A DNA stretch of 32,000 nt. It comes from Paraburkholderia acidipaludis NBRC 101816. GTDB lineage: Bacteria; Pseudomonadota; Gammaproteobacteria; Burkholderiales; Burkholderiaceae. The position numbers were made by a program, and so were the translations under genes. The DNA lies in assembly GCF_000684975.1 (NCBI RefSeq), contig NZ_BAXZ01000005.1, positions 317,827 through 349,826 on the forward strand, written 5' to 3'. How positions within the stretch are numbered: position 1 is the first letter of the stretch; each line of letters begins with the position of its first letter. The notes below the pieces were generated by a model. The model was not told the DNA's origin, did not search any database, and worked only from the letters and a program-made list of their open reading frames with translations. Below are positions 3,730 to 25,172 of this stretch, in pieces.

Positions 3730-5466
3730 CTAGCGCGCGAGCGCCGCGCGGACCTTCTGCACCACCGCCTGCGCGGCCTCTTCGGCCGGCAACAACGTCG
3801 GCTCGGCGTCGCGGCGGCCCTGGTACTCGATCTTGCCTTCCTTGAGGCCTCGCTCGCCGATCACGAGACGATGCGGCACGCCGATCAGCTCCCAGTCGGC
3901 GAACATCACGCCCGGACGCTCGCCGCGGTCGTCGAGGATCACGTCCACGCCGGCCTTCACGAGCTCGTCGTAGATGCGTTCGGCGTGCTCGCGCACGAGC
4001 TCGCTGCGGTCCATGCCCATCGGGCAGAGCACCACCTCGAACGGCGCGATCGATTCCGGCCAGATGATGCCCTTCTCATCGAAGTTCTGTTCGATCGCGG
4101 CGCCCAGGATACGCGTGATGCCAATGCCGTAGCAGCCCATCTGCATCGGCGCGGGCTTGCCGTTCTCGGCGAGGAAGGTCGCGCCCATTGCATCGGAGTA
4201 CTTGGTGCCGAGCTGGAACACGTGGCCCACTTCGATGCCGCGGCAGATGTCGAGCACGCCCTTGCCGTCCGGCGAGGGATTGCCCTTTTTCACGTTGCGG
4301 ATGTCGGCGACGACCGGCTCCGGCAGGTCGCGGCCCCAGTTCACGCCCGTCGTGTGGAAGTCCACCTCGTTCGAACCCACTACGAAGTCGCTCATGTTCG
4401 CGACCGTACGGTCCGCGATCACCTTGACGGGCTTCTTCGTGTTGAGCGGCCCGAGGTAGCCCGGCGGCGTGCCGAACCATTCGACAATCTCGGCTTCGGT
4501 CGCGAAGCGGAAATTGGCGAGGCCTTCGAGCTTCGCCACCTTGATCTCGTTCAGGTCGTGGTCGCCGCGCAGCATCAGCAGCCAGATCGTGGGCTCGGCG
4601 CCTTCGTTGTCGGTCGCCAGAATGATCGACTTGATGGTGCGCTCGAGCGGAATGCCGAGCAGAGCCGCCACGGCCTCGCACTTCGCCGCGCCCGGCGTCG
4701 CGGTCTTCGTGAGGGCTTCGGTAGCCGGGCCGCGCGTGGCGATGAGCGGCAGCGCATCGGCTGCTTCGACGTTGGCCGCGAAGTCCGAAGTCGGGCAGTA
4801 GGCGATATCGTCCTCGCCCGTCTCGGCGATCACGTGAAATTCGTGCGAGCCGCTGCCGCCGATCGAGCCGTTGTCGGCCGCGACCGCGCGGAACTGCAGG
4901 CCGAGACGCGTGAAGATGCGCACATAGGCGTCGTACATCTTTTGGTACGAGCCCTTGAGGCCTTCGATGTCCTTATCGAACGAGTACGCGTCCTTCATGA
5001 TGAACTCGCGGCCGCGCATCACGCCGAAACGGGGACGGATTTCGTCGCGGAACTTCGTCTGCACCTGGTAGAAGTTCACCGGCAGCTGACGGTAGCTCTT
5101 GATCTGGTTGCGCGCGATGTCGGTCACGACTTCCTCGTGCGTCGGACCCATCACGAAATCGCTCTGCTTGCGGTCCTTGAAGCGCAGCAGTTCCGGCCCG
5201 TATTTTTCCCAGCGTCCCGATTCCTGCCACAGCTCGGCCGGCTGCACGGCCGGCATCAGGAGCTCGATCGCGCCCGCACGGTTCATTTCCTCGCGCACGA
5301 TCTGCTCGACCTTGCGGATCGAGCGCAGGCCGATCGGCAGATAGTTGTAGATGCCGCCCGCGACGCGGCGGATCATGCCCGCGCGGACCATCAACTTGTG
5401 GCTGACGATTTCGGCGTCAGCCGGCGCTTCCTTCAGGGTGCCGATAAAGAAACGGGAGGCTTTCAT
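3730..5466 (-). CDS. proS: Proline--tRNA ligase
   Basis: 578 aa starting [33 protein letters not shown]. Bacterial-type class II ProRS with an inserted editing domain and a C-terminal anticodon-binding region. Confidence 0.96.
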
Positions 5467-11496: not shown

Positions 11497-11541
11497 AAAT
11501 TCGGGGTGTAGCTTAGCCTGGTAGAGCGCTACGTTCGGGAC
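11497..11541 (+). repeat. attL direct repeat (5 nt of leader plus tRNA-Pro positions 1-40)
   Basis: aaattcggggtgtagcttagcctggtagagcgctacgttcgggac is identical to 25091..25135. Confidence 0.9.
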
Positions 11542-11574
11542 TGTTTACACGGTCCACAAATCCTCTCACCCCGA
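11502..11574 (+). pseudogene. Chimeric pseudo-tRNA-Pro (attL/attP-type copy)
   Basis: The 5' 40 nt and the last 16 nt (aatcctctcaccccga) match the intact gene. The 3' anticodon-stem strand, variable loop and 5' T-stem strand are replaced by tgtttacacggtccaca, which cannot pair. There is no CCA. Confidence 0.8.
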
Positions 11575-11723
11575 ATTAAAAACCCCTTTAAAATCAATGA
11601 GTTGCTGAGCTTTGATCTCAGGTCAGTATTGCACTAGACTGGTGCATACGATCTTTTGATTTTGCTCTGCGGCTTTTCTGTGCTTTCGATTCTCTGTTTG
11701 CGCTGTATGGGTTGCGGCTCTCT

Positions 11724-13007
11724 ATGCCAATACCAATAGAACAGCCAACGATTTCCCTTCTTCCATCCAAAGCAACCCGTACCGTGCCGATTCCAGGCAC
11801 GCTCGAATCCGTACCGGGCTATCCAGACAAGCTCAAGATTTACCGCATGGCAGCCAGCCCATTCTGGCAAGTGCGATTCTTCGACGGCCGCAAGACCATC
11901 AAGCGTAGCACCGGCGCAACAGACAAGCGCATTGCGCACCGGTTCGCCAAAGACCTCTACGAACAGATCCTCTACAGCAAATTCGGCGATGTCGATAACA
12001 CCGGCCGCAGCCGCTTCGGCGTCTGCGCAGCCGGCATGCTGGAAGCGCAAGCGGGCCGCGTGCTTCGCAAAGAGATTTCCGCGCAGTCGCATCAGAACGA
12101 CATCTACATGCTCAATAACCGCGTGCTTCCGTTCATGCGTGAGCTGGATGTCAGCGAAGTCACCTACGAAGTGCTTGAGCGGTTCGTTACCGCGCTATCC
12201 GATCTATCTGCGTCCGCAATACAGCGGCATCTCGGCATCGTTCGCAAAACGCTCGATTACGCAGCAAATCATCGATTGCTGACCGGCATTCCCAATTTCC
12301 CAAAAATCAAGAAGCGCGAAGAACCGCGCGGCTGGTTCACCGTCCGCGAATATCGCTGGCTGTGGTCGAAAGCTCGCTCCCTGCTTGGAACCAGACAGGT
12401 CATTGAACCGAAATCGGGCAAGGATGTGGACGTTCGGCGCGTCCAGTTCACGGATGATCTGCTCTACATGATCGCGTTTATGGTCAACGGCTTCATCCGC
12501 CCTACCGACCTGAAAACCATGCAGCACCGGCATGTCGAAATCATCCGAAACAGCCATACTTATCTGCGACTGACGCTGCCGGAAAGCAAAAAACACAACA
12601 AGCCGATCGTCACGTTACGGAGAGCCGTCGATGCTTATGAACGGCTGACGGCCATTCATCGTGCGGAAGGGCTGGCCGGACCGGCCGACTACGTTTTCCT
12701 GCCTCAGTTCAAGAATCGGGCGACCGCGCTGCGTCGACTCGAACAGCAGTTCAATTTCCTGCTCGATGCGCTCGACCTGAAAACCGGCCTGCGTGGCGAA
12801 AAGCGCACGATCTACAGCTTGCGGCATACGTCCATCATGTACCGACTGCTGTATGGCGACGGAATCGACATGCTGACGCTTGCCCGCAATGCCCGCACGT
12901 CTGTCGAAATGATTGAGCGTTTCTACGCCAGCGAGCTAGTCGGCGAAATGAACATCGGCGCGATCCAGTCGCAGCGTCGGCGCAAGACTCGATCCGAACT
13001 GCGCTGA
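11724..13007 (+). CDS. int: Tyrosine-type site-specific integrase (phage/P4-like)
   Basis: Track ORF 11712..13007 starts at a TTG; the first ATG is at 11724. Catalytic-domain signatures are IRPTDLKTM, YSLRHTSIMY (HxxR) and the terminal MIERFYAS Tyr. It is adjacent to attL. Confidence 0.88.
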   Translation: MPIPIEQPTISLLPSKATRTVPIPGTLESVPGYPDKLKIYRMAASPFWQVRFFDGRKTIKRSTGATDKRIAHRFAKDLYEQILYSKFGDVDNTGRSRFGVCAAGMLEAQAGRVLRKEISAQSHQNDIYMLNNRVLPFMRELDVSEVTYEVLERFVTALSDLSASAIQRHLGIVRKTLDYAANHRLLTGIPNFPKIKKREEPRGWFTVREYRWLWSKARSLLGTRQVIEPKSGKDVDVRRVQFTDDLLYMIAFMVNGFIRPTDLKTMQHRHVEIIRNSHTYLRLTLPESKKHNKPIVTLRRAVDAYERLTAIHRAEGLAGPADYVFLPQFKNRATALRRLEQQFNFLLDALDLKTGLRGEKRTIYSLRHTSIMYRLLYGDGIDMLTLARNARTSVEMIERFYASELVGEMNIGAIQSQRRRKTRSELR

Positions 13008-13184
13008 CCGCATAAAATTGTCGTGGCAACAGACGTTCCCCCTGCGGTTGGCCAAACGAGCCGCCATGCGTTTTGCTGGCCCGCTCGATACTTGTGCTGC
13101 CTCACGCTCAAGCAGCAAGCCAAAACGCCGTTAAATTAACGTGGCGGCACAACACTAGTCTTTCTGCGACGTTTTTCCGTACCC

Positions 13185-13847
13185 ATGACTGACATCGTAC
13201 TCACTCGCAAATTCGGCGAGCCTTTCCCGATCTTTGATTCGATCAGTGCGGCGTCTGACGCGATCACCAAGGCCGCATTTCGGCTCTATGTTGTGATAAA
13301 CCCAGACCACTCAGCAGACGACTTCTTAAGGGAAGTCCTCATGCCCATAGCGCAGTCATCGGCCGAAAGCCCGACGCAAATCGAAGTTCGGGTGTTCAAG
13401 AATCACTCCGAGCAATCGTTCGTCATTTACATGCGAGCAATCTGCCACGCGTGCGCCTACGTACAGGAAGCACGAAACGCGCACAATGAAGGCCGGGAAA
13501 GCGAAGGGTGGTCTCATATCGCCAATGCACACTACCTGCTGGGTTATGCGGAAGGCATATTTGCCCTGGAACCGGCGCTAGTCCGCACTATCTCCGCCCG
13601 AGCAAGGAAAAATTCATCCGAAGGCGATGAAAAGCGATATGGGCCGCTCCGGAAACTGGCTCGGGAACTTGCCGCCGCTGGCAACTACAAGAGCAAACGC
13701 AACGCCGCGCTGTCGATCAAGGATCGGGTCATTGCCGAATCACGCAAGACGGGCGTCAACATGTCCGAAGCGCAGGCAGAAAAAACCATCACGGCATGGC
13801 TTGAGGGGATGACGTTTGCTCGCAAACAGGGAACTTCTGCGGGCTGA
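13185..13847 (+). CDS. Hypothetical protein (no motif recognised)
   Basis: 220-aa ORF with normal amino-acid composition and no competing ORF. Helical-looking C-terminus. Confidence 0.55.
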   Translation: MTDIVLTRKFGEPFPIFDSISAASDAITKAAFRLYVVINPDHSADDFLREVLMPIAQSSAESPTQIEVRVFKNHSEQSFVIYMRAICHACAYVQEARNAHNEGRESEGWSHIANAHYLLGYAEGIFALEPALVRTISARARKNSSEGDEKRYGPLRKLARELAAAGNYKSKRNAALSIKDRVIAESRKTGVNMSEAQAEKTITAWLEGMTFARKQGTSAG

Positions 13848-13955
13848 CGCAGTATGTCAGCGGGCGAGCAATCTATTTTTAAATCCCGCTCCGAAATAAA
13901 GTTCGTTTCGTCGATTAGCTAATCGACGATTCCGAAACCTTATAAGGAGTATGTC

Positions 13956-14816
13956 ATGGAAAATATCAACGCAACCGAAACCAACACGCAGGAACTCGAT
14001 ACGAGCGCCGCAAAAGAATTTCCGATTGAGAAGTCCAAGCTCAAAAAGGCTCTCGAGAAAAATAAGCAATCGGTTGGCTTCGAATTCAGCTCGAACAAGC
14101 TGGAGTCACACGATGAAAATGTGGTAATCCCTCTTCTCAAAGCAGAGCTGGACGATCTCAAGAAGCGCGGCGAGTCGATTAGAAAAAAGATCGACGGATT
14201 TCACGGAAAAATTCAGCAATCTGCAATTGACGAGCTTGCGAAATGTCTTGGGATTCGTCAGAAATTTTTCAAAATCGACAGCATCTTGCTTCAAGACAAA
14301 ATCTACGCCACCCTGTATGAGAAAGCAATGAACGAGCCGTTCAAAAAAAAGCGAAAGAATACGACAGAATACCATTTGATTTCGCGAATTTACCGCGGAG
14401 AAGAGCGGCGACAAGCGTCCTCCGATGCACTCATCCTCCAGCGCGCCAACGACGCAGGCCAGACGGAACAGACATTTGCGGCATGGGTGCTTGCAGAGAA
14501 AGGACTTGATGAAATTCGTCGTGCCATCTCCGCAGAGCGCAAGGTTGCAAATTCCAGCAATGGTAAGTTAAAAAAGAAAATCAGCAAGAATGTTGGAACC
14601 GATCGATTTATCAAGCTATTCAATGATCTAAACCACTCTGGACATGTTCGAGATATGACAGTTCTCGAAAAGGATGAGATGCACACCTTGTTTGGAAGTT
14701 GGCTTATTTGGGAGCCTGAAAATTCCGTACCTATCGTTGTGTACCCTCGGAAAGACGGGAAATTCCAGATTCGCAAACTTGATCTTAATGCGATGCGAAC
14801 CAACAATCCTTCTTAA
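13956..14816 (+). CDS. Hypothetical protein, Lys/Glu-rich, AT-rich gene
   Basis: 286-aa ORF preceded by a strong RBS (taAGGAGtatgtcATG). Predicted coiled-coil-like N-terminus. It is the most AT-rich stretch of the window. Confidence 0.65.
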   Translation: MENINATETNTQELDTSAAKEFPIEKSKLKKALEKNKQSVGFEFSSNKLESHDENVVIPLLKAELDDLKKRGESIRKKIDGFHGKIQQSAIDELAKCLGIRQKFFKIDSILLQDKIYATLYEKAMNEPFKKKRKNTTEYHLISRIYRGEERRQASSDALILQRANDAGQTEQTFAAWVLAEKGLDEIRRAISAERKVANSSNGKLKKKISKNVGTDRFIKLFNDLNHSGHVRDMTVLEKDEMHTLFGSWLIWEPENSVPIVVYPRKDGKFQIRKLDLNAMRTNNPS

Positions 14817-14941
14817 AATTGTCTGTTGACGCGACGTTTTTGTCAAAATGTTTCTTGATGGCCCAGTAGCCCTTCGCTACCCTCTTTTACATCGGCATTG
14901 CACTTGATGCCGTTCCGATATTAAGCGTAGCAAGGGGTTAA

Positions 14942-15376
14942 ATGTTCGCGATCACGCGTTTTCATAATTTCATGTCGCTGTATCAAGGGCGGTACGCTAC
15001 CGCCCTTGCAAAATCGCTCGGTACGTCGGTGTTCGCGGCGAAAGCGCTCGATATCGCACTGTCCACCGGCGAAATCTCCCTTGATAAACTGCATCTGCTG
15101 CTCGGTTGCAGTCGGGGACAGGCAATCGGTGCTGCGTTCGACTTGCAGGAACAGGGGCTAGCCCGAGTCATCGAATCGACAAAAAGCCGCAACGGAGAAT
15201 ACTTCCTAGTGGCCGTCGATGCACGGTGCGAAGCTGCCCGACTGTACCGCGCCAAGCTGGAACGACTCGGCCGTGATATCGGCCTGTCCGATGCTCTGGA
15301 AAAGACGCTTCCGGCCCTGCAGGCGATCTTCATGGACGCCCTATCCGCGATGGTAGCGAAGCCACCCAAACGGTAG
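14942..15376 (+). CDS. Winged-helix (MarR-like) domain protein, paralogue A
   Basis: 144 aa. Shares RFHxFMSxY...AAxAL...LxxLLGxSxGQxIGAxFDLQ with the convergent ORF 15410..15889. Confidence 0.6.
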   Translation: MFAITRFHNFMSLYQGRYATALAKSLGTSVFAAKALDIALSTGEISLDKLHLLLGCSRGQAIGAAFDLQEQGLARVIESTKSRNGEYFLVAVDARCEAARLYRAKLERLGRDIGLSDALEKTLPALQAIFMDALSAMVAKPPKR

Positions 15377-15409
15377 CGTTGTCAATTATTCAATGGTGCT
15401 CGGCACGGC

Positions 15410-15889
15410 TCACACGACCCGCGCCAATATCCGCCGCTGGGCCTGATACTGGACGTTCTGCGCATCGCCTTGCAGTTCCTCAAGCGCTTTCGTCAGCACG
15501 TCCTGATACACAGGTAGCAGGGTTGCCAACCGCTCGGTAACTCCGGCTTCCGCGGCCAGATTGAATACCAGTTTGTCATATCCCTCGAATCCGAACAGTC
15601 GCTCCCGGCTCGGCTTCAACACCCGTTGTCGATTGTCGTTACCCTCCTCCGCTATCTCGATGTAGCGGAGATGTTGCAGGTCAAATACGGCGCCAATGAT
15701 TTGGCCCTGACTTCCGCCAAGGATGCAGCTCAACTCGTGAAGGGTCATGCCGGGAAATGTCCGGATCAGGCCCAAGGCTCGCGCGGCCATCGGCGTCATC
15801 TGCAATGCTTGGCCGAGCGCCGATGCGCGGCAGCTCTCGTAGACCGACATGAACGTATGGAATCGGAAAAGTGAATCACTCGTAGTCAT
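15410..15889 (-). CDS. Winged-helix (MarR-like) domain protein, paralogue B
   Basis: 159 aa. About 30% identical by eye to 14942..15376 over the N-terminal ~90 residues. Confidence 0.6.
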   Translation of the reverse strand: MTTSDSLFRFHTFMSVYESCRASALGQALQMTPMAARALGLIRTFPGMTLHELSCILGGSQGQIIGAVFDLQHLRYIEIAEEGNDNRQRVLKPSRERLFGFEGYDKLVFNLAAEAGVTERLATLLPVYQDVLTKALEELQGDAQNVQYQAQRRILARVV

Positions 15890-15965
15890 AGGCTATTGAT
15901 TTTTCGAAATAAAATCCGCCGAGCGGCTTTCACCTGTGCCCCGACCACTCACGCAATCCCTGTAC

Positions 15966-16035
15966 GATACGAAAACACCCTCAAAAATTCAACCGTTTTG
16001 GAATTAAATATTCCTATTAGGGTGTTCATCGTATC
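15966..16035. promoter_or_regulatory. Imperfect inverted repeat in a divergent promoter region (candidate operator)
   Basis: gatacgaaaacaccct (15966..15981) pairs with agggtgttcatcgtatc (16019..16035). It lies between divergent genes 15410..15889(-) and 16062..16460(+). Confidence 0.4.
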
Positions 16036-16061
16036 TGGAATGAAGTCGACCATATCGTCCT

Positions 16062-16460
16062 ATGAGCACTCGTTCCGCCCCCACAACCGACGACGCACAC
16101 GACGCGCTGCTAGCTGCCCGCGTCGGGACCGCCATTGCTGAACAACGACGTGCACGCGGACTGACCCAAGCCAAGCTTGCAGAAATGATCGATCTGGAAC
16201 AGGAAGCGGTCAGTCGCTGGGAACGTGGAACGCGTGTACCGACGTTACATCGCCTTCAACAACTAAGCGATGCGCTGGACTGCTCGGTAGACCAGCTATT
16301 GCAGCGTGGTTCGAAGCGGCCGGACGACCAGATGGCCATGATCGCCGACGCGCTAGAGGGACTGGGCGCCGACGAACGTTTGCTCGTCGTGAATTTCGTC
16401 CAGCAGTTCGCCGACATGCTCAAGGTGAAGCACCGCACCAAGAATAATCGACGTAAGTAG
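16062..16460 (+). CDS. XRE/Cro-CI family helix-turn-helix transcriptional regulator
   Basis: 132 aa with the classic HTH_3 segment QRRARGLTQAKLAEMIDLEQEAVSRWERGTRVPTLHRLQQLSDALDCSVDQLL. Confidence 0.85.
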   Translation: MSTRSAPTTDDAHDALLAARVGTAIAEQRRARGLTQAKLAEMIDLEQEAVSRWERGTRVPTLHRLQQLSDALDCSVDQLLQRGSKRPDDQMAMIADALEGLGADERLLVVNFVQQFADMLKVKHRTKNNRRK

Positions 16461-16816
16461 GAGTCGGACCGGATGCGAAAACAATCAGGGGCCGGCGCCC
16501 AACCTCGCACCGTAGCAAGGAACCGAGTTCCGGCCATGAAGCGTCGTTCGTATGCGTTATCGCACGACCTTTCAAGCGTCTGCTCTGCACTTGCACCGGC
16601 CCCTTGTTCGGAGGCTGACCGGTGCACATCTGGCGAAGTGTTTGCCGTGGGCTGCCCTGAAACCGATCTCTACGTTTAACGCGGGCGCTCACTGGGGCGT
16701 GCGCTATTTCGCGGCCGGCAGGTTTCTGCCAAAACGCAGCCGCGAGTGAAATCGCGGTGGGCGTACCACGTCAGCCGCCTCGCCGCTAGGTGCCAAGGGC
16801 GAGTCCGCTGACACAC

Positions 16817-19708
16817 TTAACCGAGATACATAATGGCCGTCGCGCGTCGCGAGCGACGGCCATTTGTGTCAGCCTCATGCTTGATGGCCAGTCGTGTACC
16901 AGCTCCAATATGTGTCCACCGGTGTGTGTTCCGGTTCTCGAAGGCGGATGAATGCAGGAAATACGACTGGCCATCGTCGTCCTTTGCGAACACATAACTT
17001 GGAAACCCATCGGCAGCGGGCACGTTGCTGACGCAAACAAGCGTATAGCCCTCATCCTTGAGCGTTTCGGTCACCCCTTGGAGCGACTCTCCGACGGCTG
17101 GCGCGATCTCGGCGATACCGATTTTCGGCGGCAGCGCGATACCCAACGTTCCCGCGACCAGTCGAAGGTCCGATTCGTCAGCACCGGCGCGTTGCAGTTC
17201 GGGCAAATAGTCATCAATAAGGCGGTGGATTGAGTCAGCCTGTGGGTCAGAAGGCCTTCCGAGGTCGGGCTTGCGGAGATAGAAAGCGATATCGCCGCAC
17301 AGTTTTCGTAGCTCGTGCGCAAGTGTGCGGGACATGCCGTATCGCTTTAGCAAGAACGCTGCCGCGTCAATGCCATGGCCAATTAGCTTCCATACACGAC
17401 CGTGCCCAGCAACACCTCGCCGGAATTCAAGATCAGCCTGTCGGCGATATGCCGACACACGTGCTGCACCGTGTGTCGCCATTAATGGTCCAGACACCTT
17501 CCAATCCTGGGTCAGCGAGTAAACGGTTCCCAGCTTTTCCTGGAAGTTTAGTGCGGACAGATAGATGCTCCACAGCCGCAGGACGGCATGCTCCGCATCT
17601 TCTGACACATTACCCCATCCTGCGTCGATTAGCTCCTGACATAGGGTCTCCGCCTCATCGTGGTTGTTTGCACGCATTGCCAGTGCAGCAAGCATGAGCT
17701 TGGCAGCAGGATCGGCACTATCCTGCTGGATTGCAAACCGCAATGCAGACTCTGCGTCCCTCGGATCATTCAACCTCAAGAGCAACTTGGCCTGCAAGCG
17801 ATACAGAAATGCGGAACCGCCTTGGTTGTCGATCTGCTGCCGCACGCGCGTCAGAAGCGGTGCGCATGGCAAAGGGCTCTCGGCAGCGCATGCGCCTGCG
17901 ACCTGTCTCGAAAGCGCAATCGCCGAGGCCGGTGTACCTTCAGGGATGAAAAATGGATCGAGCGGTGAAAGCCCGCGCTCGGCCTGCAATTTGAGCGCGG
18001 AGGCGACGGCTGCCTCGCTCTTTCGCTGCCAATCAAGCAGCGAGGCCCGCACTTTGAGATTTCTGGGTTGCACACGCAACAACTCCCGGATTGACGTGCC
18101 CAACGCATAAACCTCGCCCGCATCTGTTGTTTCCCGCGTAATCAGGGAAGTCTTACCAAGGCTGGCGATTGCCGCTGAAATAGTGTCGACGTCCAAGTTC
18201 AACGCTTCGCAGAGGCGACCTCGGGACGGCTGCTCCAGTACGAATAGCGCTTCAAGTACTTCGTTTGCTGCCGGGGATAGAGTTTCGAGCAAATTCGAAA
18301 AGGAAAACTCTGTAACATCGACCTGTGACGATTCCAAGCTCTCGTTGATGTCTCGGCCTGCGACGTAGTAGTCCACCGTTAGGCGTATCGCCAGTGGGTT
18401 GCTGTGGCAGGTATCGATGATGCGCTGGAGTGTCACAGCGTCGAGGGGCGCCGTGCCTTTCGCTGCTAGGTAGGCACGCGCAAGCGCCATCGCTCCGCCA
18501 TCATCGAGGGATGGCAATGGGATGTTTTTCGCCCCGTCGAGCGGCACCCGACTTGTGACGATCACCTTCCAGTTTTGCGGCAACTCATCCATGAGGCCGT
18601 CAAAGACGAGCGGCTCATCGCGCAGCAGAGTTTCGAGGTTGTCAACAAATAGCCATATCCGTCTGTCGTCGCAAGCCCTCAGCGCGGCAGGAAAGTCGGG
18701 CCAGTCCCAACCGAACATGGCGTTCAAAGAGGCGGTGAGATGGTCACGGACGCCTGCAATCGTCTGCGGCGCGTTGAGCGTCTCGATGCCACGCTCGGTC
18801 AGCTTTTCCTGTTTGAGCGAGATAAAGAGTACGCCATCGGTTAGCTGCGGCGCCTCCGGCGAAACGCAAAAATCGGCTAGGACCTGCAGTGCTAAACTCG
18901 TCTTCCCGATACCGCCTCTCGCTACAATCGAGACAAGAGGTGACCGAGCATTCCGCAGTTCCTTTTGAAATCTTGCGACATCCCGATTGCGCCCGATCAA
19001 GCCCGTGGACGAGTGTTCGAACTCGGTGGGCAAATTCGTGGGAACACACCATCGCGGCTGGTTCAACCATTCATCGGGCGGCTCCTTGAGGTCGCCGGCG
19101 ATCGCGCTTGCCAGCGCCGCCGAGACATCATACAGGTGCAGCGAGTCAATCGCGGGGTCACTGGCTAAAGCGCAGCAGCGGTACCAGTAGCAATGCGGGA
19201 ACGGCCTGTTGGGATGGCTGACCGCATTGCGGATGTCGAACACCTCAAGAGCATTGCAAAGCGCCATCAGTCGCTTAGCGTGTGCGGCCTCCGACGAGCC
19301 CTCCGCTACTTCGAGCGCAAGCTGCAGAACTTCTGCAAAGTAGCTGTTCTCGATAATTATCGAACACGTCTCCTGCAGATCGCCGACGATCGAGCGACCT
19401 ATTCTGCTCAGTATTTCCCTCCCTACCGGGCCGGTGGAGATGTTCGTGTTTGATTCGAGAATATAGCGGCCGAGACTACGTTCGAATTCGTATATCACCA
19501 TCGCGCATTGAATGCGTAACTGACCGTCGCCGTTCAATTTGATCCCCCGCAGTCCCGTTTCTGGTCCGTTTGCACGGACGCGATTTACATGCCACCAGAA
19601 CGCCATTATAAGGTCAGTACACCGGGTCATCGCCCTGTGAAACAACTGGCCCATTCGCACCGGCATGTAGGCGGCGCAGCCTATCTGCGCAACGAGATCT
19701 CGCGACAT
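16817..19708 (-). CDS. STAND-class NB-ARC NTPase with an N-terminal HEPN-like domain, TPR-like repeats and a possible CSD-like C-terminal domain
   Basis: 963 aa. NB-ARC motifs are the P-loop VARGGIGKTSLA, Walker B RIWLFVDNLE, VIVTSR, and the GxP motif SNPLAIRL followed by a winged-helix-like region. The N-terminal ~230 aa contain FDIRNAVSHP (Rx4H). Residues ~620-760 are TPR-like helical repeats. The last ~80 aa (YVFAKDDDGQSYFLHSSAF...GTRLAIKHE) resemble a cold-shock/OB pattern. Confidence 0.8.
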   Translation of the reverse strand: MSRDLVAQIGCAAYMPVRMGQLFHRAMTRCTDLIMAFWWHVNRVRANGPETGLRGIKLNGDGQLRIQCAMVIYEFERSLGRYILESNTNISTGPVGREILSRIGRSIVGDLQETCSIIIENSYFAEVLQLALEVAEGSSEAAHAKRLMALCNALEVFDIRNAVSHPNRPFPHCYWYRCCALASDPAIDSLHLYDVSAALASAIAGDLKEPPDEWLNQPRWCVPTNLPTEFEHSSTGLIGRNRDVARFQKELRNARSPLVSIVARGGIGKTSLALQVLADFCVSPEAPQLTDGVLFISLKQEKLTERGIETLNAPQTIAGVRDHLTASLNAMFGWDWPDFPAALRACDDRRIWLFVDNLETLLRDEPLVFDGLMDELPQNWKVIVTSRVPLDGAKNIPLPSLDDGGAMALARAYLAAKGTAPLDAVTLQRIIDTCHSNPLAIRLTVDYYVAGRDINESLESSQVDVTEFSFSNLLETLSPAANEVLEALFVLEQPSRGRLCEALNLDVDTISAAIASLGKTSLITRETTDAGEVYALGTSIRELLRVQPRNLKVRASLLDWQRKSEAAVASALKLQAERGLSPLDPFFIPEGTPASAIALSRQVAGACAAESPLPCAPLLTRVRQQIDNQGGSAFLYRLQAKLLLRLNDPRDAESALRFAIQQDSADPAAKLMLAALAMRANNHDEAETLCQELIDAGWGNVSEDAEHAVLRLWSIYLSALNFQEKLGTVYSLTQDWKVSGPLMATHGAARVSAYRRQADLEFRRGVAGHGRVWKLIGHGIDAAAFLLKRYGMSRTLAHELRKLCGDIAFYLRKPDLGRPSDPQADSIHRLIDDYLPELQRAGADESDLRLVAGTLGIALPPKIGIAEIAPAVGESLQGVTETLKDEGYTLVCVSNVPAADGFPSYVFAKDDDGQSYFLHSSAFENRNTHRWTHIGAGTRLAIKHEADTNGRRSRRATAIMYLG

Positions 19709-19910
19709 TTGCGACCGGCTGCAAGTATCTTGTGGTCGAGGTTACGGCGGATCCGTGGGAGTGGGAGAGAGCCGACGATCTGCCAGCGATGGAAACACAC
19801 GTGATCGACCGCTGTACCTTTGAAGGGGACATAGCGCGTTACCAGAAACGCGTGGCGGAAGAGGGTCGCACTGTGCCGAAGAGTTGCCTGCAGGAATTTG
19901 CCTCCCCCTT

Positions 19911-20105
19911 TTACGGCACGAGTTTCATCGTGCCGTGACTACCGCAACGCAAGCAACCGTCGTTGCCGCTCCAATTGCGGTTCGTACAGCGATGATCGCG
20001 GCATCCGACAGCGCCGCATTTGGTGCACCGATAGATATTGGCCGAGTGTTGCCCTGCCTGATTGGGAATGCGACCTGCGCAGCTTGCCATGTGTGATTTC
20101 TCCAT
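19911..20105 (-). CDS. Cys/His-rich miniprotein (zinc-ribbon-like)
   Basis: 64-aa ORF. The better start is the ATG at 20090, preceded by GGAGAA, giving 59 aa. Pattern is CxxC...Cx2HxC...CxxCxxH, with 7 Cys and 4 His. It begins 8 nt after the stop of the upstream ORF on the same strand. Confidence 0.5.
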   Translation of the reverse strand: MEKSHMASCAGRIPNQAGQHSANIYRCTKCGAVGCRDHRCTNRNWSGNDGCLRCGSHGTMKLVP

Positions 20106-20112
20106 CAGTTGA

Positions 20113-20358
20113 TTAAACGCCTGCTATTCTGAACAGGTCTCCTTTATCCGACGGCGCAAACCTCGCTAGACCAATGCGCCGATTGAATAGCTGGACTGCT
20201 TTCTCGAAATACTGCTGATCGGTCAGCCTGTGCATGTCCTGTCCGAGCGACCAACCGTTGCCGAGTACGTGCGTTAGTTCCGGCCTGCTCTCATGCCTGA
20301 ACGCGAGCGCAAACCGGCGACGTGCTTCTATCTGAGCAGGATTAGCGCGGCTCATCAC
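20113..20358 (-). CDS. Hypothetical 81-aa protein, translationally coupled to the small recombinase
   Basis: Its start (GTG 20358 or ATG 20355) overlaps the recombinase stop codon (20355..20357). No motif recognised. Confidence 0.5.
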   Translation of the reverse strand: MMSRANPAQIEARRRFALAFRHESRPELTHVLGNGWSLGQDMHRLTDQQYFEKAVQLFNRRIGLARFAPSDKGDLFRIAGV

Positions 20359-20936
20359 ACGAGGTCCACAGCTTTGCGCTGCATGTCGTCGTTGACGTCG
20401 ATGTATCGCTGCGTCGTCGAAATATCTCGATGTCCTGCTAGCGACATCAACACTCGCACGCCGACGCCTTTGCTTGCCAGATTGGTGATGAACGAGCGCC
20501 GGCCGGAATGGCTGCTCGCGCCTTGAATGCCTGCTTCCCTGTAGAGCCAGTGGAAGTACTGACAGAGCGTATTGGCCGTGAACCCCGCCCGCTTCTGTGT
20601 ATAGAACAGCGGTTGCTCAGGTCTCGAATTCTTCAAGCTCGCGACATACGCGGCGAGCTCGCGCCGTAACTTCTGTCCCACGAACACGGTACGGGCGTGT
20701 CGCCCTTTGGTCTGCTCTGGAGCAAGTCGAATTTCTGACTTGATCGAACCATCTGCGTCGAGCACATCCCTCACAAGCAACGCGGCGACTTCGCCAACAC
20801 GCATACCAGCCCAATGCGTCAGCAGCACCATCGCTCGATTACGCAGCACATGCCGCCGCAACGAGACGTAGGTCAGTACCTGCTTTAGTTCCTTTTCGGT
20901 GAATGTCTTGGCCTGCTTCATTTTCCCCCTGAACAA
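20355..20936 (-). CDS. Small (193 aa) tyrosine recombinase, catalytic-core-only, FimB/FimE-sized
   Basis: Box I is AGMRVGEVAALLVRDV. HSGRRSFITNL supplies HxxR, and LAGHRDISTTQRYIDV supplies the H and catalytic Y. There is no N-terminal arm-binding or SAM-like domain. Confidence 0.8.
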   Translation of the reverse strand: MFRGKMKQAKTFTEKELKQVLTYVSLRRHVLRNRAMVLLTHWAGMRVGEVAALLVRDVLDADGSIKSEIRLAPEQTKGRHARTVFVGQKLRRELAAYVASLKNSRPEQPLFYTQKRAGFTANTLCQYFHWLYREAGIQGASSHSGRRSFITNLASKGVGVRVLMSLAGHRDISTTQRYIDVNDDMQRKAVDLV

Positions 20937-21072
20937 AGAAAGTCCATAGCCAGAGGATGTATTCTTTAGTTATACGGATCAACAAAGGAATGACACCACG
21001 CAGGTGTCAGAGGAAACAAGCACTTACGCGAAAATTAAAGGTTTTAGCAAAAACCTTTTATTTCGACCTGCT

Positions 21073-21134
21073 GCCGACATGAGATGTCGGCTAACCGACA
21101 AGTGATGTGCGCGCTGCCGTCGAAATTGTCGGTT
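21073..21134. repeat. Cluster of CCGACA/TGTCGG motifs including an 8-bp-arm hairpin
   Basis: Hairpin gccgacat-gag-atgtcggc (21073..21091), aaccgaca (21093..21100) and tgtcggtt (21127..21134). It lies between the small recombinase and the HUH gene. The same 7/8-mer recurs at 24706..24728. Confidence 0.5.
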
Positions 21135-21414
21135 GCCCAGACAAATTTCCTTGCACGGAGCGCCGTTGCAGTGGAAGCGGAAGTAAGGGGGGAACTAGGA
21201 GAGGAACGGATGTGATGTGTATCTGGTTATTTCCTATCGCATGCTCTATCCGTTCCTTGTTCGTCGTATTGTTCACATGCAGTTCTTCATCGAAATCTAT
21301 AACCGTAGTAAATCATTAAAGAGCTACTTTACAAGGCTCTTTTCGTGCTGAAAGCTGCGGAACGATTTCGTTAGCGACGCAGCCTGGGCAGTTCAGCGGA
21401 AAGCTTGCTTACTT

Positions 21415-21909
21415 CTATTCTTCGTCGGGAATGTGCATGTTCCCGACATCCACGTTGTCGGCGCTGCCCAAACCGACTTCTTTGGTGATGTAGTCGATCC
21501 AGCCTTCAGTGCATACAGGTTTGATCTTAATTTCGTTATTTCCGAACGCGGTCTTGTACCATGCTTTATGAATCGCAGCGGCGATTTCCTCTTGGCTCAT
21601 CTCCTCTCGGAAATTTCCGAAGGCGCAGTGATAGTGCAGATTCTTACCGGTCGCCTTGCCCTCCAAAACGGGAATGACGTACAGGCGTCGAGTCGAATTT
21701 CCGAACATGCTGCGATTCAGTCTGTTCATGAAGTGTCGGAAGTTCTTTCGTGCTTCGTCTTCGGTCAGTGTCTGCGTAGTCATGCCCTTGTCGTTCGTGA
21801 TTTCACGATACTGCTTCATCGTTAGCGTAACGGCATGCGTCATGCACCATTGGTACTCAAGCAGCCAATCGCGCGTCTCCCGCTGAATTTGTTTTTGATT
21901 GTTTGTCAT
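21415..21909 (-). CDS. Minimal HUH-superfamily endonuclease (Rep / inovirus Gp2 / YagK-YfjJ-like)
   Basis: Track ORF 21415..22074 overlaps the divergent gene. The internal ATG at 21909 (MTNNQKQ...) gives 164 aa. The three ordered motifs are HAVTLTM (motif I), NLHYHCAF (HUH) and IDYITKEVG (YxxK). Confidence 0.55.
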   Translation of the reverse strand: MTNNQKQIQRETRDWLLEYQWCMTHAVTLTMKQYREITNDKGMTTQTLTEDEARKNFRHFMNRLNRSMFGNSTRRLYVIPVLEGKATGKNLHYHCAFGNFREEMSQEEIAAAIHKAWYKTAFGNNEIKIKPVCTEGWIDYITKEVGLGSADNVDVGNMHIPDEE

Positions 21910-22022
21910 AGCTGTATTTAGCTCAGCCAGGACAAAAAAACCTATATAACCGAGAAATTCTGTTGATTTCAACAATGGGCGAATACATCCTCCTCTGTAT
22001 CGAAACGACATAGGAGAACTAC

Positions 22023-22469
22023 ATGAGCGCAATCGCAAATCTGAAAATCGTCGCTGCAAAACGCCCCGGTGCATTGCCGCAGGTCGTACAGCGTCGTAAC
22101 CGACTGATCGCGCAAATTTGGGAACAGACAGAACTTGCGAAGGCTCAACAGGCCGGAACGTCGTTTACACCGACGAAGTTCCGTTCGGTGAAGGATGCCG
22201 AAACCGGCGAACGCCGTAACGTGGAGGTGCAGAAGCGCGTTCGTGCTTGGTGGTGGACTGCGGAAAACGGTCGCATTCACATGCACGTGAAATACGGCTC
22301 GAAGACGCTGGAACTCGCGAAGGGCAAACAGGCTATCGAAGTCGGTACGCTAAAGGATCTGATTCCGACGCTCGACACGCTCAAGGCAGCAGTCGTCGCC
22401 GGTGAACTCGATGCGCAGATCGAAGGCGCAAGCAATCAGATGCGGTCGGGCTTTGTTGGCAAGACGTGA
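22023..22469 (+). CDS. Hypothetical protein (148 aa)
   Basis: Strong RBS (atAGGAGAactacATG), normal composition, and followed by a 13-bp perfect hairpin. No motif recognised. Confidence 0.65.
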   Translation: MSAIANLKIVAAKRPGALPQVVQRRNRLIAQIWEQTELAKAQQAGTSFTPTKFRSVKDAETGERRNVEVQKRVRAWWWTAENGRIHMHVKYGSKTLELAKGKQAIEVGTLKDLIPTLDTLKAAVVAGELDAQIEGASNQMRSGFVGKT

Positions 22470-22474
22470 AATAC

Positions 22475-22503
22475 ATCGGAAGTCCGATAATCGGACTTCC
22501 GAT
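22475..22503 (+). terminator. Perfect 13-bp hairpin downstream of 22023..22469 (terminator or protein-binding palindrome)
   Basis: atcggaagtccga-taa-tcggacttccgat, starting 6 nt after the stop codon. There is no clear U-tract. Confidence 0.45.
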
Positions 22504-22717
22504 CACGCGATGATACTGCGCATCCCAAACGGTGCACTCATCGGGCATGCATCCCCATCACCTGTACGTCGCAGAATGGCTAGTTTCGGCTATACGATCA
22601 AACGTGCAGGATTATCGACAATCGTTTTCACTCTGCGAAGCAGACGAACGGACGACTCCGCAAACTAAACTTCGTGTGGTAGTTCGCCAAGGGCCACGTT
22701 TCCCACGGCACGAAGTC

Positions 22718-23146
22718 TCAAAGGGATTCGCTAATGCGGAGCCATGCTTCGTGGAATTTGGCCTGCTTGTAGGATACAACGCTAAGCCAATAAGCGCCGC
22801 CATTCGCATCCCGCGTTGCCATCTGCTGCACTTCCTGCCTTGTCAACACATAGCAGACCGGCTGGTCTTCATTGGCATTAACTGTGACGACCCACCACGC
22901 TGAACATAGTGCTTCGAGCGACTTGCCTAGAGGGACGGCATGGTATTTGCTGAGTGCCTTTGACTGGACACCGAAAAACCTGCTCTCTTCAGCATCCGTC
23001 ACCATTAGGTCTGAGCCTCGCATGTTACGAACCGTCGGCATGACATGCCATCCGCGTCGAGAAAGCTGCCAAGCAACATAGTTAAGACCGGCATTTCCAG
23101 TCGTCGAATTCCGATAGGATCGGCCAGTATCTGCACCTAAACCCAT
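22718..23146 (-). CDS. PD-(D/E)xK-like nuclease-fold protein (Hjc/restriction-endonuclease-like)
   Basis: 142 aa. The pattern N-A-G-L-N-Y-V-A-W-Q-L-S-R-R-G-W-H-V...GSDLMV...FFGVQSKAL fits helix - beta - D - x(n) - (E/Q)xK. Confidence 0.45.
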   Translation of the reverse strand: MGLGADTGRSYRNSTTGNAGLNYVAWQLSRRGWHVMPTVRNMRGSDLMVTDAEESRFFGVQSKALSKYHAVPLGKSLEALCSAWWVVTVNANEDQPVCYVLTRQEVQQMATRDANGGAYWLSVVSYKQAKFHEAWLRISESL

Positions 23147-23275
23147 GAAGCCTTGTCCCGTTAAAATCGCTTAATCATGTTGCCCTTGTTGCGTAGCAAG
23201 ACTGCCCATGCTCGCCATTTATTGCAACATACATCTATTTGTGGAGTTTGGTTTCTCCACATTTCGGGTGCTAAT

Positions 23276-24160
23276 TTACCTCCGAAGACCACCACCTCTA
23301 TATAGGCTTTGTCTGCCAGACCGGCTTGACTCGTAATCCTCCATCAGGAGTGCAGAGAGCAGATTTCCCTTCCCAACAATCCGCAGGCGCGAATCTTTTG
23401 TTTCGTCGGTCTTGGGATCATAGTAGCCCCTTGGCCTTAGGCGGTCATCCACCAGTTCCAGTCGGCCATCCCTCTTCTGACTGATTCGGCCAATAATGTT
23501 GCCTCGCGCGTCCTTTAAGACCTGATCACTCGGTGGCTTTATAGATTTTGTGCGTGCTGAGATGTCGTTGGACGTCCTCGACAGCCTTCTGTCTCCCTTC
23601 GACGAACGCCTGCCACCGGCAAAGAGCTTGAACAGGCCCAACATGATCAAACCAAGTATGACAAGACCACCGCCTACACTACCACCTTGTGTCGTAACCG
23701 CGTTCGAAATTAAAGGTTCTGCGGACCTCTCCACAGTCAGGGGTGGCTGAGTCGCCTGCAGGGATGTTACTTGGGCCTGACTAGCGCCGGCTTCGCCGCT
23801 CGTGGCTAACTCGTGCGACGATTGCCTTGCCAACTCGGACTGCCCCGATTGCATAGACTTCATGAGTTCCTTCCACTGGGAAAAGACCTCATCAATACAG
23901 TGAACATCCGTGCACGCATCACGCTGCTGCTGCCAGTCGACAAGGTCTTCGCTCGATAGTCGTCCCGAAGCCAGCAACGATTGCTGCTGCGCGAAGATGC
24001 TGTCGTACTCGTTGTTTAGGATGGCATGGTCGCAGATGATACGCCGCGCCGCTTGCTGGGTAGTCTCGCATTGCAGGTCCCGAGCCGAAACGCTGGTACT
24101 TCCGAGTACCACCATGACGAACAGTGTTGTCGTCATTCCCTTGTGCCATATCACCGCCAA
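23276..24160 (-). CDS. Single-pass membrane protein with a Cys-containing exported N-domain (DUF1311/LprI-like?) and a basic cytoplasmic tail
   Basis: Signal-like segment TLFVMVVLGSTSVSA. N-domain CETTQQAARRIICDHAILNNEYD...RDACTDVHC. TM segment GGGLVILGLIMLGLFKLFAG. The start codon is uncertain, with a GTG, TTG and ATG all near 24136..24160. Confidence 0.55.
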   Translation of the reverse strand: MAVIWHKGMTTTLFVMVVLGSTSVSARDLQCETTQQAARRIICDHAILNNEYDSIFAQQQSLLASGRLSSEDLVDWQQQRDACTDVHCIDEVFSQWKELMKSMQSGQSELARQSSHELATSGEAGASQAQVTSLQATQPPLTVERSAEPLISNAVTTQGGSVGGGLVILGLIMLGLFKLFAGGRRSSKGDRRLSRTSNDISARTKSIKPPSDQVLKDARGNIIGRISQKRDGRLELVDDRLRPRGYYDPKTDETKDSRLRIVGKGNLLSALLMEDYESSRSGRQSLYRGGGLRR

Positions 24161-24493
24161 CTCCCTGTTTGAAACCTCACAGTACGTGATTACGGCGCAT
24201 GCGTAGAAATCTTTACGTCGAGGAAAACCTACGTCATTTGATGCATCTGCTAACGCACACTTTTCTGCTTATCAAGGAGAAGTTCCCGGAGTACGTGGCG
24301 CCGCTCACAATTTCATGAAAGGTGGAGTAGCCTTTATTGCCACCCATCCTATTATTGCCACGAGGGCTGTCGCGCTTCCCAGACCGAACCCCACCTTCCG
24401 GCTAAAATCCACCCTAACGTCCGCTAATGAGAAAGTTGAGAGGCCACTTCGGGTCAATCGCGGTCTCCGGCCGCATAAATATCCGCGACAACG

Positions 24494-24694
24494 ATGGAGA
24501 CAACAACCATGAGATACCACGAAATTCTGACCCGATCTGGTCTGCACGAAGTAGCCGACCTTGAGCAACAGCGCATCAAAGCGCAGCAGCAGGCTGCCAA
24601 GCGTCAGACCGCAGCAGCGAAACGTGCTGACCTGATGCATCGAAAGCAGAAGATAGACAAGCAGCTTTCCGACCTCAACTCCAAGCCGATCTGA
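24494..24694 (+). CDS. Small coiled-coil/basic protein
   Basis: 66-aa ORF. The ATG at 24509, preceded by GGAGA, gives MRYHEILTRSG...QQRIKAQQQAAKRQ. It is followed by two strong hairpins. Confidence 0.4.
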   Translation: METTTMRYHEILTRSGLHEVADLEQQRIKAQQQAAKRQTAAAKRADLMHRKQKIDKQLSDLNSKPI

Positions 24695-24705
24695 CAGCGT
24701 TCGGC

Positions 24706-24772
24706 AAATGTCGGTCGAACCGACATTTGAGCGAAGCGCAAGCCCTGTTCGCACGCAAGTCGAACAGGGCTT
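24706..24772 (+). terminator. Two consecutive strong hairpins (tandem terminators or a recombinase-type core site plus terminator)
   Basis: aaatgtcgg-tcgaa-ccgacattt (24706..24728) and aagccctgttcg-N9-cgaacagggctt (24740..24772). Confidence 0.45.
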
Positions 24773-25004
24773 CATCGTTGAAGAACCGCGTTTTTCGTGA
24801 TTTCTCCTGTGTACGATGTACACAGGCTACGCCTGCTGCACTGCGTTTTCTTTGGTTTTGGGGCCACATTGACTGTAGTACGCAGTGTAGTACAGTTAAT
24901 TCCTACAAAAATACAACAAGGTTCAGTCGGATGATGTTCGGAGCCGGCCACCGCAGTATCGGCGCAGACTCTCACACGATCTCCAAATTTTGCCGGCAAG
25001 CTTC

Positions 25005-25033
25005 TTGCCAAGAAGTTCAGCCTTAGCTACAAT
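25005..25033 (+). promoter_or_regulatory. Sigma70-like promoter upstream of tRNA-Pro, located in island DNA
   Basis: TTGCCA, 17 nt, then TACAAT. It sits ~60 nt upstream of the mature tRNA 5' end. Confidence 0.5.
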
Positions 25034-25090
25034 ACTGGTCTTGCTTGATGACAAACGCGGCGTAACTTGCTGTGTACGCTGTCAACGCAA

Positions 25091-25135
25091 AAATTCGGGG
25101 TGTAGCTTAGCCTGGTAGAGCGCTACGTTCGGGAC
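25091..25135 (+). repeat. attR direct repeat
   Basis: Identical to 11497..11541. Confidence 0.9.
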
Positions 25136-25172
25136 GTAGAGGCCGGAGGTTCGAATCCTCTCACCCCGACCA
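25096..25172 (+). tRNA. tRNA-Pro (anticodon CGG)
   Basis: 77 nt. Acceptor stem CGGGGTG/CACCCCG, D-arm GCTT/GAGC, anticodon stem CTACG/CGTAG, loop TTCGGGA (CGG, G37), T-arm GGAGG-TTCGAAT-CCTCT, and an encoded CCA. Confidence 0.95.

Follow-up and report, generated by a model that had tools for sequence, protein, structure and literature searches.

Why do a tyrosine recombinase gene and two very small genes stand directly upstream of a STAND NTPase gene and read toward it? The question is raised by a 32,000-nucleotide stretch of the Paraburkholderia acidipaludis NBRC 101816 genome (contig NZ_BAXZ01000005.1, positions 317,827 to 349,826), which we call the window and in whose numbering all positions are given unless another locus is named. 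For the three genes, referred to here as rec, p81 and cys64, the original prediction had offered three roles: a phase-variation or inversion switch of the STAND gene, a resolvase or accessory module of a nested element, or, for the two small proteins, partners of the STAND NTPase. We found that rec, p81 and cys64 are very probably independent of the STAND gene, and that the latter is interchangeable cargo in a slot that starts right after cys64.

To this end, 80 genome loci carrying rec were compared, together with their 10-kb flanks, with all proteins of the genomic island on which the three genes lie. Homologues of the island proteins recurred to very different extents: the DUF6641 protein at 59 of these loci, a protein like the 431-residue island integrase at 42, the Rep-like protein at 16, p81 at 3 (plus one weak partial match) and cys64 at 3, while a STAND homologue was present at none of the 80. 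De novo clustering of the rec neighbours agreed with this comparison, and in a reciprocal sample rec was located 1-3 kb away in 13 of 20 DUF6641 loci. No STAND homologue was detected at E ≤ 1e-20 in 397 other genomes of the family, among them G015 and G363, the two sampled genomes that carry the p81-cys64 pair. Gene-neighbourhood analysis, one half of the test put forward with the original prediction, thus showed a trio that travels without STAND genes.

Beyond the window, p81 and cys64 occurred together only at the loci L004, L005, L006 and L118, the last of which is a metagenome contig, and what follows cys64 differs among them. In the window it is the STAND gene; in L004 it is a winged helix-turn-helix (wHTH) gene and a membrane-protein gene; in L005 and L118 there is a porin gene in addition to the same wHTH/membrane-protein pair; and in L006 cys64 is followed by genes for a nucleoside deoxyribosyltransferase, a SIR2-AAA protein, a DUF6884 protein and QueC. 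The closest island, L006, shares the DNA from 22500 to 19926 at 78.7% identity and that from 16536 to 14854 at 84.9% identity. Homology stops at the cys64 stop codon and resumes at 16536, past the STAND gene, so that 3.4 kb with the STAND gene in the window are replaced by 4.7 kb of other genes in L006. The flanks of the slot are conserved, and the defence cargo is swapped cleanly between the two islands: HEPN-STAND lies at 16537-19925 of the window and a SIR2/QueC-type block at 11010-15719 of L006.

On the minus strand, the window divides at this point into a conserved backbone block (19926..22500), which comprises DUF6641, the Rep-like gene, rec, p81 and cys64 and shares about 2.6 kb at 73.5-78.9% nucleotide identity with L004, L005 and L006, and a variable cargo slot (16537..19925), which here holds the 963-amino-acid STAND gene (16817-19708) and is not part of the module. 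Outside the clade formed by the window, L004, L005 and L006, nothing conserved was found behind rec on its strand.

The three genes were present on the minus strand as originally described, as open reading frames (ORFs) at 20355-20936 (193 amino acids from a TTG codon), 20113-20358 (81 amino acids) and 19911-20105 (64 amino acids). They read toward the STAND gene, whose start at 19708 leaves 202 bp behind cys64 (200 bp in the earlier description). For rec (20355..20921), the most likely start is not the listed TTG at 20936 but the ATG at 20921, which follows a GGGGGA ribosome-binding site and gives 188 amino acids, the commonest length among its homologues. p81 (20113..20355) most likely starts at the ATG at 20355 and then encodes 80 amino acids, as do 22 of its 25 homologues. 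This ATG shares bases with the rec stop codon (TGATG), and the stop-start overlap, already part of the original prediction, was kept in all five loci (the window, L004, L005, L006 and L118). cys64 (19911..20090) starts at the ATG at 20090 behind its own GGAG ribosome-binding site and encodes 59 amino acids; because of this start, the gap between p81 and cys64 is 22 nt and not the 8 nt assumed before. Because the pairwise ratios of nonsynonymous to synonymous substitution (dN/dS) were low and indicate purifying selection (0.04-0.06 for rec, 0.16-0.39 for p81 and 0.06-0.16 for cys64), all three are real genes. The interval from cys64 to the STAND gene is taken up by a 68-amino-acid ORF on the plus strand (19732-19938), which matched nothing in Pfam, lacked homologues at all 80 loci and is probably not a gene.

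rec encodes a tyrosine recombinase that consists of the catalytic domain alone. Pfam family PF00589 matched residues 11-183 of 193 (E 2.4e-26, 93 bits against a cut-off of 27.1), and because the match covers this span, there is no room for a core-binding domain. The catalytic domain begins at residue 11 (residue 6 of the 188-residue form), and an N-terminal SAM-like core-binding domain is absent. The product also matched the integrase family phrog_216 (E 1.2e-41). At least 97% of the 82 family members compared retain each residue of the catalytic set R46, K77, H142, R145, H168 and Y178, numbered in the 193-residue ORF, and both the R...HxxR...H...Y signature and the lack of N-terminal DNA-binding domains had been read correctly at the outset. 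In the 188-residue numbering the catalytic tyrosine is position 173, and the protein ends 15 residues later.

More than 7800 rec homologues were found, most of them 188 amino acids long and 60-95% identical, in Burkholderia, Paraburkholderia, Herbaspirillum, Massilia, Polynucleobacter, Methylophilaceae, Limnohabitans and other hosts. Across the 80 genome loci, too, rec is 60-95% identical. Thousands of family members thus occur in Betaproteobacteria, and the conservation of rec greatly exceeds that of the islands around it. Its sequence suggests an active tyrosine recombinase without a core-binding domain that is conserved in a very large betaproteobacterial island family. The XerC and XerD models reached 73-77 bits on rec (cut-offs 279-335), with only the C-terminal half aligning from about position 90-110, and the integron integrase model TIGR02249 reached 46.9 bits (cut-off 265) in two partial stretches.

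Short rec-like recombinases (192-194 amino acids, 37-39% identity) were also seen on Paracoccus and Legionella plasmids (L120, 4992-5986; L121, 643-1691). Each is directly followed by a small co-oriented gene, encoding a DUF3768 protein in Paracoccus and a 154-amino-acid protein of unknown function, with a stop/start overlap, in Legionella. These small genes are of another family, and no repeated palindromes accompanied the distant rec homologues on the two plasmids. Short recombinases may generally be paired with a small partner gene.

p81 and cys64, both small and basic, are much rarer than rec. Homologues of p81 formed 25 clusters, all from Burkholderia or Paraburkholderia and 75-89% identical; among 213 genomes of the window's genus 2 carried p81, as did 2 of 95 from Burkholderia, and cys64 was found in 3 of 400 sampled genomes of the family. 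Neither protein had a match in Pfam, NCBIfam, PHROGs or PADLOC, the ESM Atlas yielded no useful match to either of them, and p81 has no Pfam SAM-like domain. Because the p81 profile recovered only its own single cluster among 1.84 billion representatives, no fused form of p81 exists. The AlphaFold2 model of p81, which is translationally coupled to rec, is all-helical, with five helices at a mean confidence score (pLDDT) of 74.6. Foldseek found no match to the model with E <1 in the PDB, and the best Z that VIA-align reached across all representatives was 4.0; the folds matched were mixed and included a few homeodomains at Z 3.2-3.8. Against PDB sequences, the p81 profile gave only weak HMG-box matches (E 0.4-0.65).

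cys64 is a Cys7/His3 miniprotein in which C4, H15, C22-x2-C25, C30-x2-H33-x-C35, C46-x2-C49 and H52 were invariant in 8 sequences, which bears out the CxxC / Cx2HxC / CxxC spacing noticed initially. Its model contains beta-hairpins only and is of low confidence (pLDDT 59.7), and its profile matched zinc-ribbon chains weakly (E about 0.1); the protein is probably a zinc ribbon. A second, diverged cys64 copy lies in L005 (13529-15675, minus strand), in inverted orientation and 2.5 kb from the first, and is preceded by an unrelated 84-amino-acid membrane-like ORF and a gene for a 552-amino-acid TPR protein. Because this copy is located away from rec and p81, cys64 can move without them. An ATTGTC..GACAAT palindrome follows both copies in L005, and the porin/wHTH/membrane block is bracketed by the inverted cys64-palindrome units. 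A recent inverted duplication was considered as the origin of the two copies and rejected, as their proteins are about 70-75% identical and synonymous sites are saturated.

The island itself occupies 13.6 kb (11497-25135), coincides with a low-GC stretch at about 11.5-25.1 kb and is integrated at tRNA-Pro. Its bounds are a perfect 45-nt direct repeat (11497-11541 and 25091-25135) that equals the 5′ part of tRNA-Pro(CGG). The right tRNA-Pro copy (25091-25172) is intact; the left one (11497-11578), next to the integrase, has a scrambled T-arm and was not called as a tRNA. A separate full-length integrase of 431 amino acids, atypical in sequence, is encoded at 11712-13007 (phrog_1, E 2.1e-15), and the island has no conjugation genes. 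Rfam returned only tRNA in 19.5-25.3 kb, and no Polynucleobacter-1 RNA.

Between rec and an HUH Rep-like gene (PF23343) further upstream lies a non-coding region of about 490 bp (20922..21414, minus strand); the DUF6641 gene adjoins the Rep-like gene on the opposite strand, with overlapping ORFs. The region holds a promoter-like block, hairpins at 20991-21009 and 21032-21063 and a cluster of the words TGTCGG/CCGACA at 21074-21134. Its alignment with four related islands revealed conserved blocks and a palindrome that is kept through compensating changes. One block directly upstream of rec (20940-20985, TTGATCCGTATAACTAAAGAATACATCCTCTGG) is almost invariant in five islands whose flanks have diverged. 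Judged by sequence, it is probably the promoter or operator of rec; a scan for consensus promoters gave no match around 20940-20985.

The palindromes proved to be a recurrent property of the islands. Nearly perfect palindromes of the form GTC(G/C)-N7-(C/G)GAC occur in lineage-specific versions, with 188 GTC-type copies in 81 sequences (the 80 loci and the window) compared with 38-52 after shuffling. In 29 of 80 sequences a palindrome was located at most 60 bp after the rec stop codon, whereas the background density would predict 7.7 such sequences. The c3/c5/AAA cassette, the integrase gene and the DUF6641 block have copies precisely at their borders, and with respect to rec these blocks vary in order and are found in either orientation. 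The 95.5% identity that L064 and L068 show through rec breaks off at the palindrome. In L075, from Methylophilaceae, the integrase gene is positioned between 54-bp inverted repeats that contain the palindrome (4100-4190 and 5360-5460 from the rec start). The integrase gene of L075 is opposite in orientation to those of the related L055 and L064, and this integrase module could be invertible.

Within the window, palindrome A (21085..21100, TGTCGG-N4-CCGACA) is situated 164 bp upstream of the rec TTG at 20936 and 149 bp upstream of the ATG at 20921, and was found at the same position in L004 and L005. Palindrome B (24709..24725), with 10-bp arms (AAATGTCGGT-CGA-ACCGACATTT), lies near the right island end and has a counterpart at the same relative position in L004. 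Neither palindrome is assigned to a strand. The pattern TGTCGG-N3-6-CCGACA has only three copies in the 6.47-Mb window genome, two of which, A and B, are inside the island. In L004 and L005 a palindrome follows the cys64 stop codon, and p81 and cys64 therefore fall inside the "rec module" there.

Two further observations concern the surroundings of such sites. A near-palindrome with 15-nt arms (16832-16864), which contains GTCGCGCG..CGAGCGAC, sits in the last codons of the STAND gene and is similar to joint palindromes seen in other lineages of islands. The majority of the family's islands (L016, L018, L021, L030, L043, L055 and others) also carry, by rec and in either orientation, a three-gene cassette for two unknown proteins of about 290 amino acids and a clamp-loader-like AAA ATPase of about 235 amino acids (phrog_168, E 1e-21); this cassette is missing from the window island.

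These data suggest a reading in which rec, p81 and cys64 form one operon of the island backbone at the edge of the defence-cargo slot. rec would act on short, island-specific joint palindromes of the GTCG-N7-CGAC type, and recombination at these sites would resolve, invert or exchange modules, defence cargo included. p81 and cys64 would serve as accessory DNA-binding or architectural factors of rec, restricted to the small Burkholderia/Paraburkholderia clade in which they stand between the rec stop codon and the joint palindrome. This comes close to the resolvase or accessory module of the original prediction, since rec is a backbone gene and the small genes belong to its operon in one clade. 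Taken as a whole, the package of a tRNA-Pro island backbone operon, rec acting at the palindromes and accessory p81 and cys64 is tentative, its likelihood falling a little short of even. Its most far-reaching form seems unlikely to us: that a catalytic-domain-only recombinase is targeted by a separate helical basic protein and a zinc ribbon to short, module-delimiting palindromes in a very large, undescribed family of tRNA-integrated islands, with integron- or pdif-like swapping of anti-phage defence genes (HEPN-STAND here, SIR2/QueC in the sister island) into a fixed slot.

Several observations weigh against rec acting at the palindromes with the help of the two small proteins. Because rec was the criterion by which the 80 loci were selected, its association with the palindromes is not independent, and in the DUF6641-selected sample, which is small, clear palindromes were found in 4 of 13 rec-positive and 1 of 7 rec-negative loci. 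Most palindromes stand at 3′ gene ends, and they fold into hairpins of -7 to -23 kcal/mol, so that a role as terminator or protein operator would also fit. Several palindrome subtypes occur within one island, and no palindrome follows cys64 in the window itself. Because most rec genes lack p81 and cys64, rec does not need either of them. In addition, p81 has no DNA-binding fold that Foldseek or VIA-align could recognise, and the cys64 paralogue of L005 stands apart from rec and p81.

Other explanations had to be weighed against this one, beginning with those that tie the genes to the STAND gene. If rec were a FimB/FimE-type invertase that flips a promoter segment, the STAND gene downstream, which has the same orientation, would be phase-variable. 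Such invertases likewise have about 190-200 amino acids, essentially a catalytic domain only and a complete catalytic set, and two invertase models matched rec weakly (NF007370 with 27.4 bits, E 2e-6; NF007371 with 25.5 bits, E 8e-6). The likeness claimed originally therefore stood for size and domain make-up but not for family membership, as cut-offs of 221 and 222 apply to these models, well above what rec reached, and rec scores better with the Xer models. A search for inverted repeats over 15.0-25.5 kb, refined within 19.3-21.45 kb, gave no more than the chance level. None above chance brackets the STAND promoter, where only pairs of 9-10 bp expected by chance were seen; the best repeat around the STAND start has 10 bp, and one of its arms is inside coding sequence. 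A 16-nt inverted pair (17123/21110) was rejected because it is expected by chance. rec, moreover, is a backbone gene of a mobile island rather than the neighbour of one regulated operon, has the same neighbours in 80 loci without a STAND gene, and in L006 other cargo occupies the place between the same flanks, which makes the proposed switch highly improbable. Equally improbable is a role of p81 and cys64 as partners of the STAND NTPase, be it as sensor, as inhibitor or in the manner of an antitoxin: the pair is next to the STAND gene, in shared orientation, in one window only, but is accompanied by other cargo at its four other loci and by no STAND match in G015 and G363.

The main and serious rival concerns rec itself, which might be a MOB_M-type relaxase similar to MobK or MpsA that nicks an origin of transfer (oriT) in the upstream region of about 490 bp, the island being mobilised by a helper conjugative element and p81 resembling MpsB. 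MobK of pIGRK lacks core-binding and arm-binding domains and has its catalytic tyrosine at position 179, and a 456-bp oriT region separates its gene from a rolling-circle rep gene upstream (PMC8152469). In SGI1, MpsA shares a transcript with MpsB, a 98-residue helical protein that resembles a core-binding domain (PMC6414798). According to a preprint, MOB_M relaxases are common in chromosomes, are often annotated as integrases and are located near an integrase in 96% of cases (10.64898/2026.01.13.699239). We compared rec and p81 with MobK and MpsA/MpsB by these published descriptions, and by sequence with TcpM only. rec likewise has a tyrosine-recombinase catalytic domain with its catalytic tyrosine but without core-binding or arm-binding domains. 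The window also repeats the pIGRK order, with an HUH (rolling-circle type) Rep-like gene, a structured intergenic region with inverted repeats, conserved and a candidate oriT, and then rec with its tyrosine at 173 of 188. As in SGI1, a small helical protein is encoded directly behind the recombinase in an integrative element with a separate integrase; the coupling of rec with the 80-residue p81 recalls the bicistronic MpsA/MpsB, and the full-length integrase fits the setting given in the preprint; conjugation genes are absent from the island. There are also differences. The similarity of rec to TcpM is not specific (BLASTP E 0.005, confined to 79 N-terminal residues), MobK possesses two additional C-terminal helices where rec ends 15 residues after the tyrosine, MpsA has 322 residues compared with 188, and p81, absent from most family members, does not match core-binding domains in fold. 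The island family also has many palindrome copies, repeated at module joints, instead of a single oriT. A relaxase function thus lies on the unlikely side. Alternatively, p81 and cys64 could be independent small cargo (regulators, anti-defence or defence-modulating proteins) that are carried along on the rec transcript and take no part in what the recombinase does. Their confinement to a small clade while rec is widespread, their place at the edge of the cargo slot and the second L005 cys64, which follows the membrane-like and TPR genes rather than rec and p81, are consistent with this. The p81 overlap with rec that is kept in all five loci, the position of both genes inside the palindrome-delimited rec module in L004 and L005, and their small and basic nature, which suits nucleic-acid binding, argue against it and leave it quite unlikely.

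For the favoured reading, in which rec recombines modules at joint palindromes, the nearest known systems are pdif modules and integrons. On Acinetobacter plasmids, 11-6-11 XerC/XerD sites read by host Xer proteins delimit pdif modules (PMC6449649, PMC13141974). In both cases short two-armed sites of recombination type bound discrete modules in varied combinations and orientations, whereas the sites described here are nearly perfect 15-29-bp palindromes on chromosomal islands, and the candidate enzyme is encoded by the island and lacks a core-binding domain. With integrons, the islands share a tyrosine recombinase that neighbours a variable region, and exchangeable units whose 3′ ends carry palindromic sites. 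In contrast to integrons, rec has no IntI-specific insertion, as the TIGR02249 score indicates, its sites are short perfect palindromes, the modules often contain several genes with their own promoters, and the variable region is downstream of rec rather than upstream as with IntI.

The annotation "integrase/XerD" is routinely given to short tyrosine recombinases that lack a core-binding domain. For the window, the STAND gene is stand-alone cargo, and rec, p81 and cys64 should not be cloned with it as a "system". If rec exchanges modules at the joint palindromes, this would account for the shuffling of defence genes between islands; if rec is a MOB_M relaxase, this would account for the movement of small islands without conjugation genes. 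Either way, p81 and cys64 are candidate trans-acting DNA-targeting subunits of a minimal recombinase.

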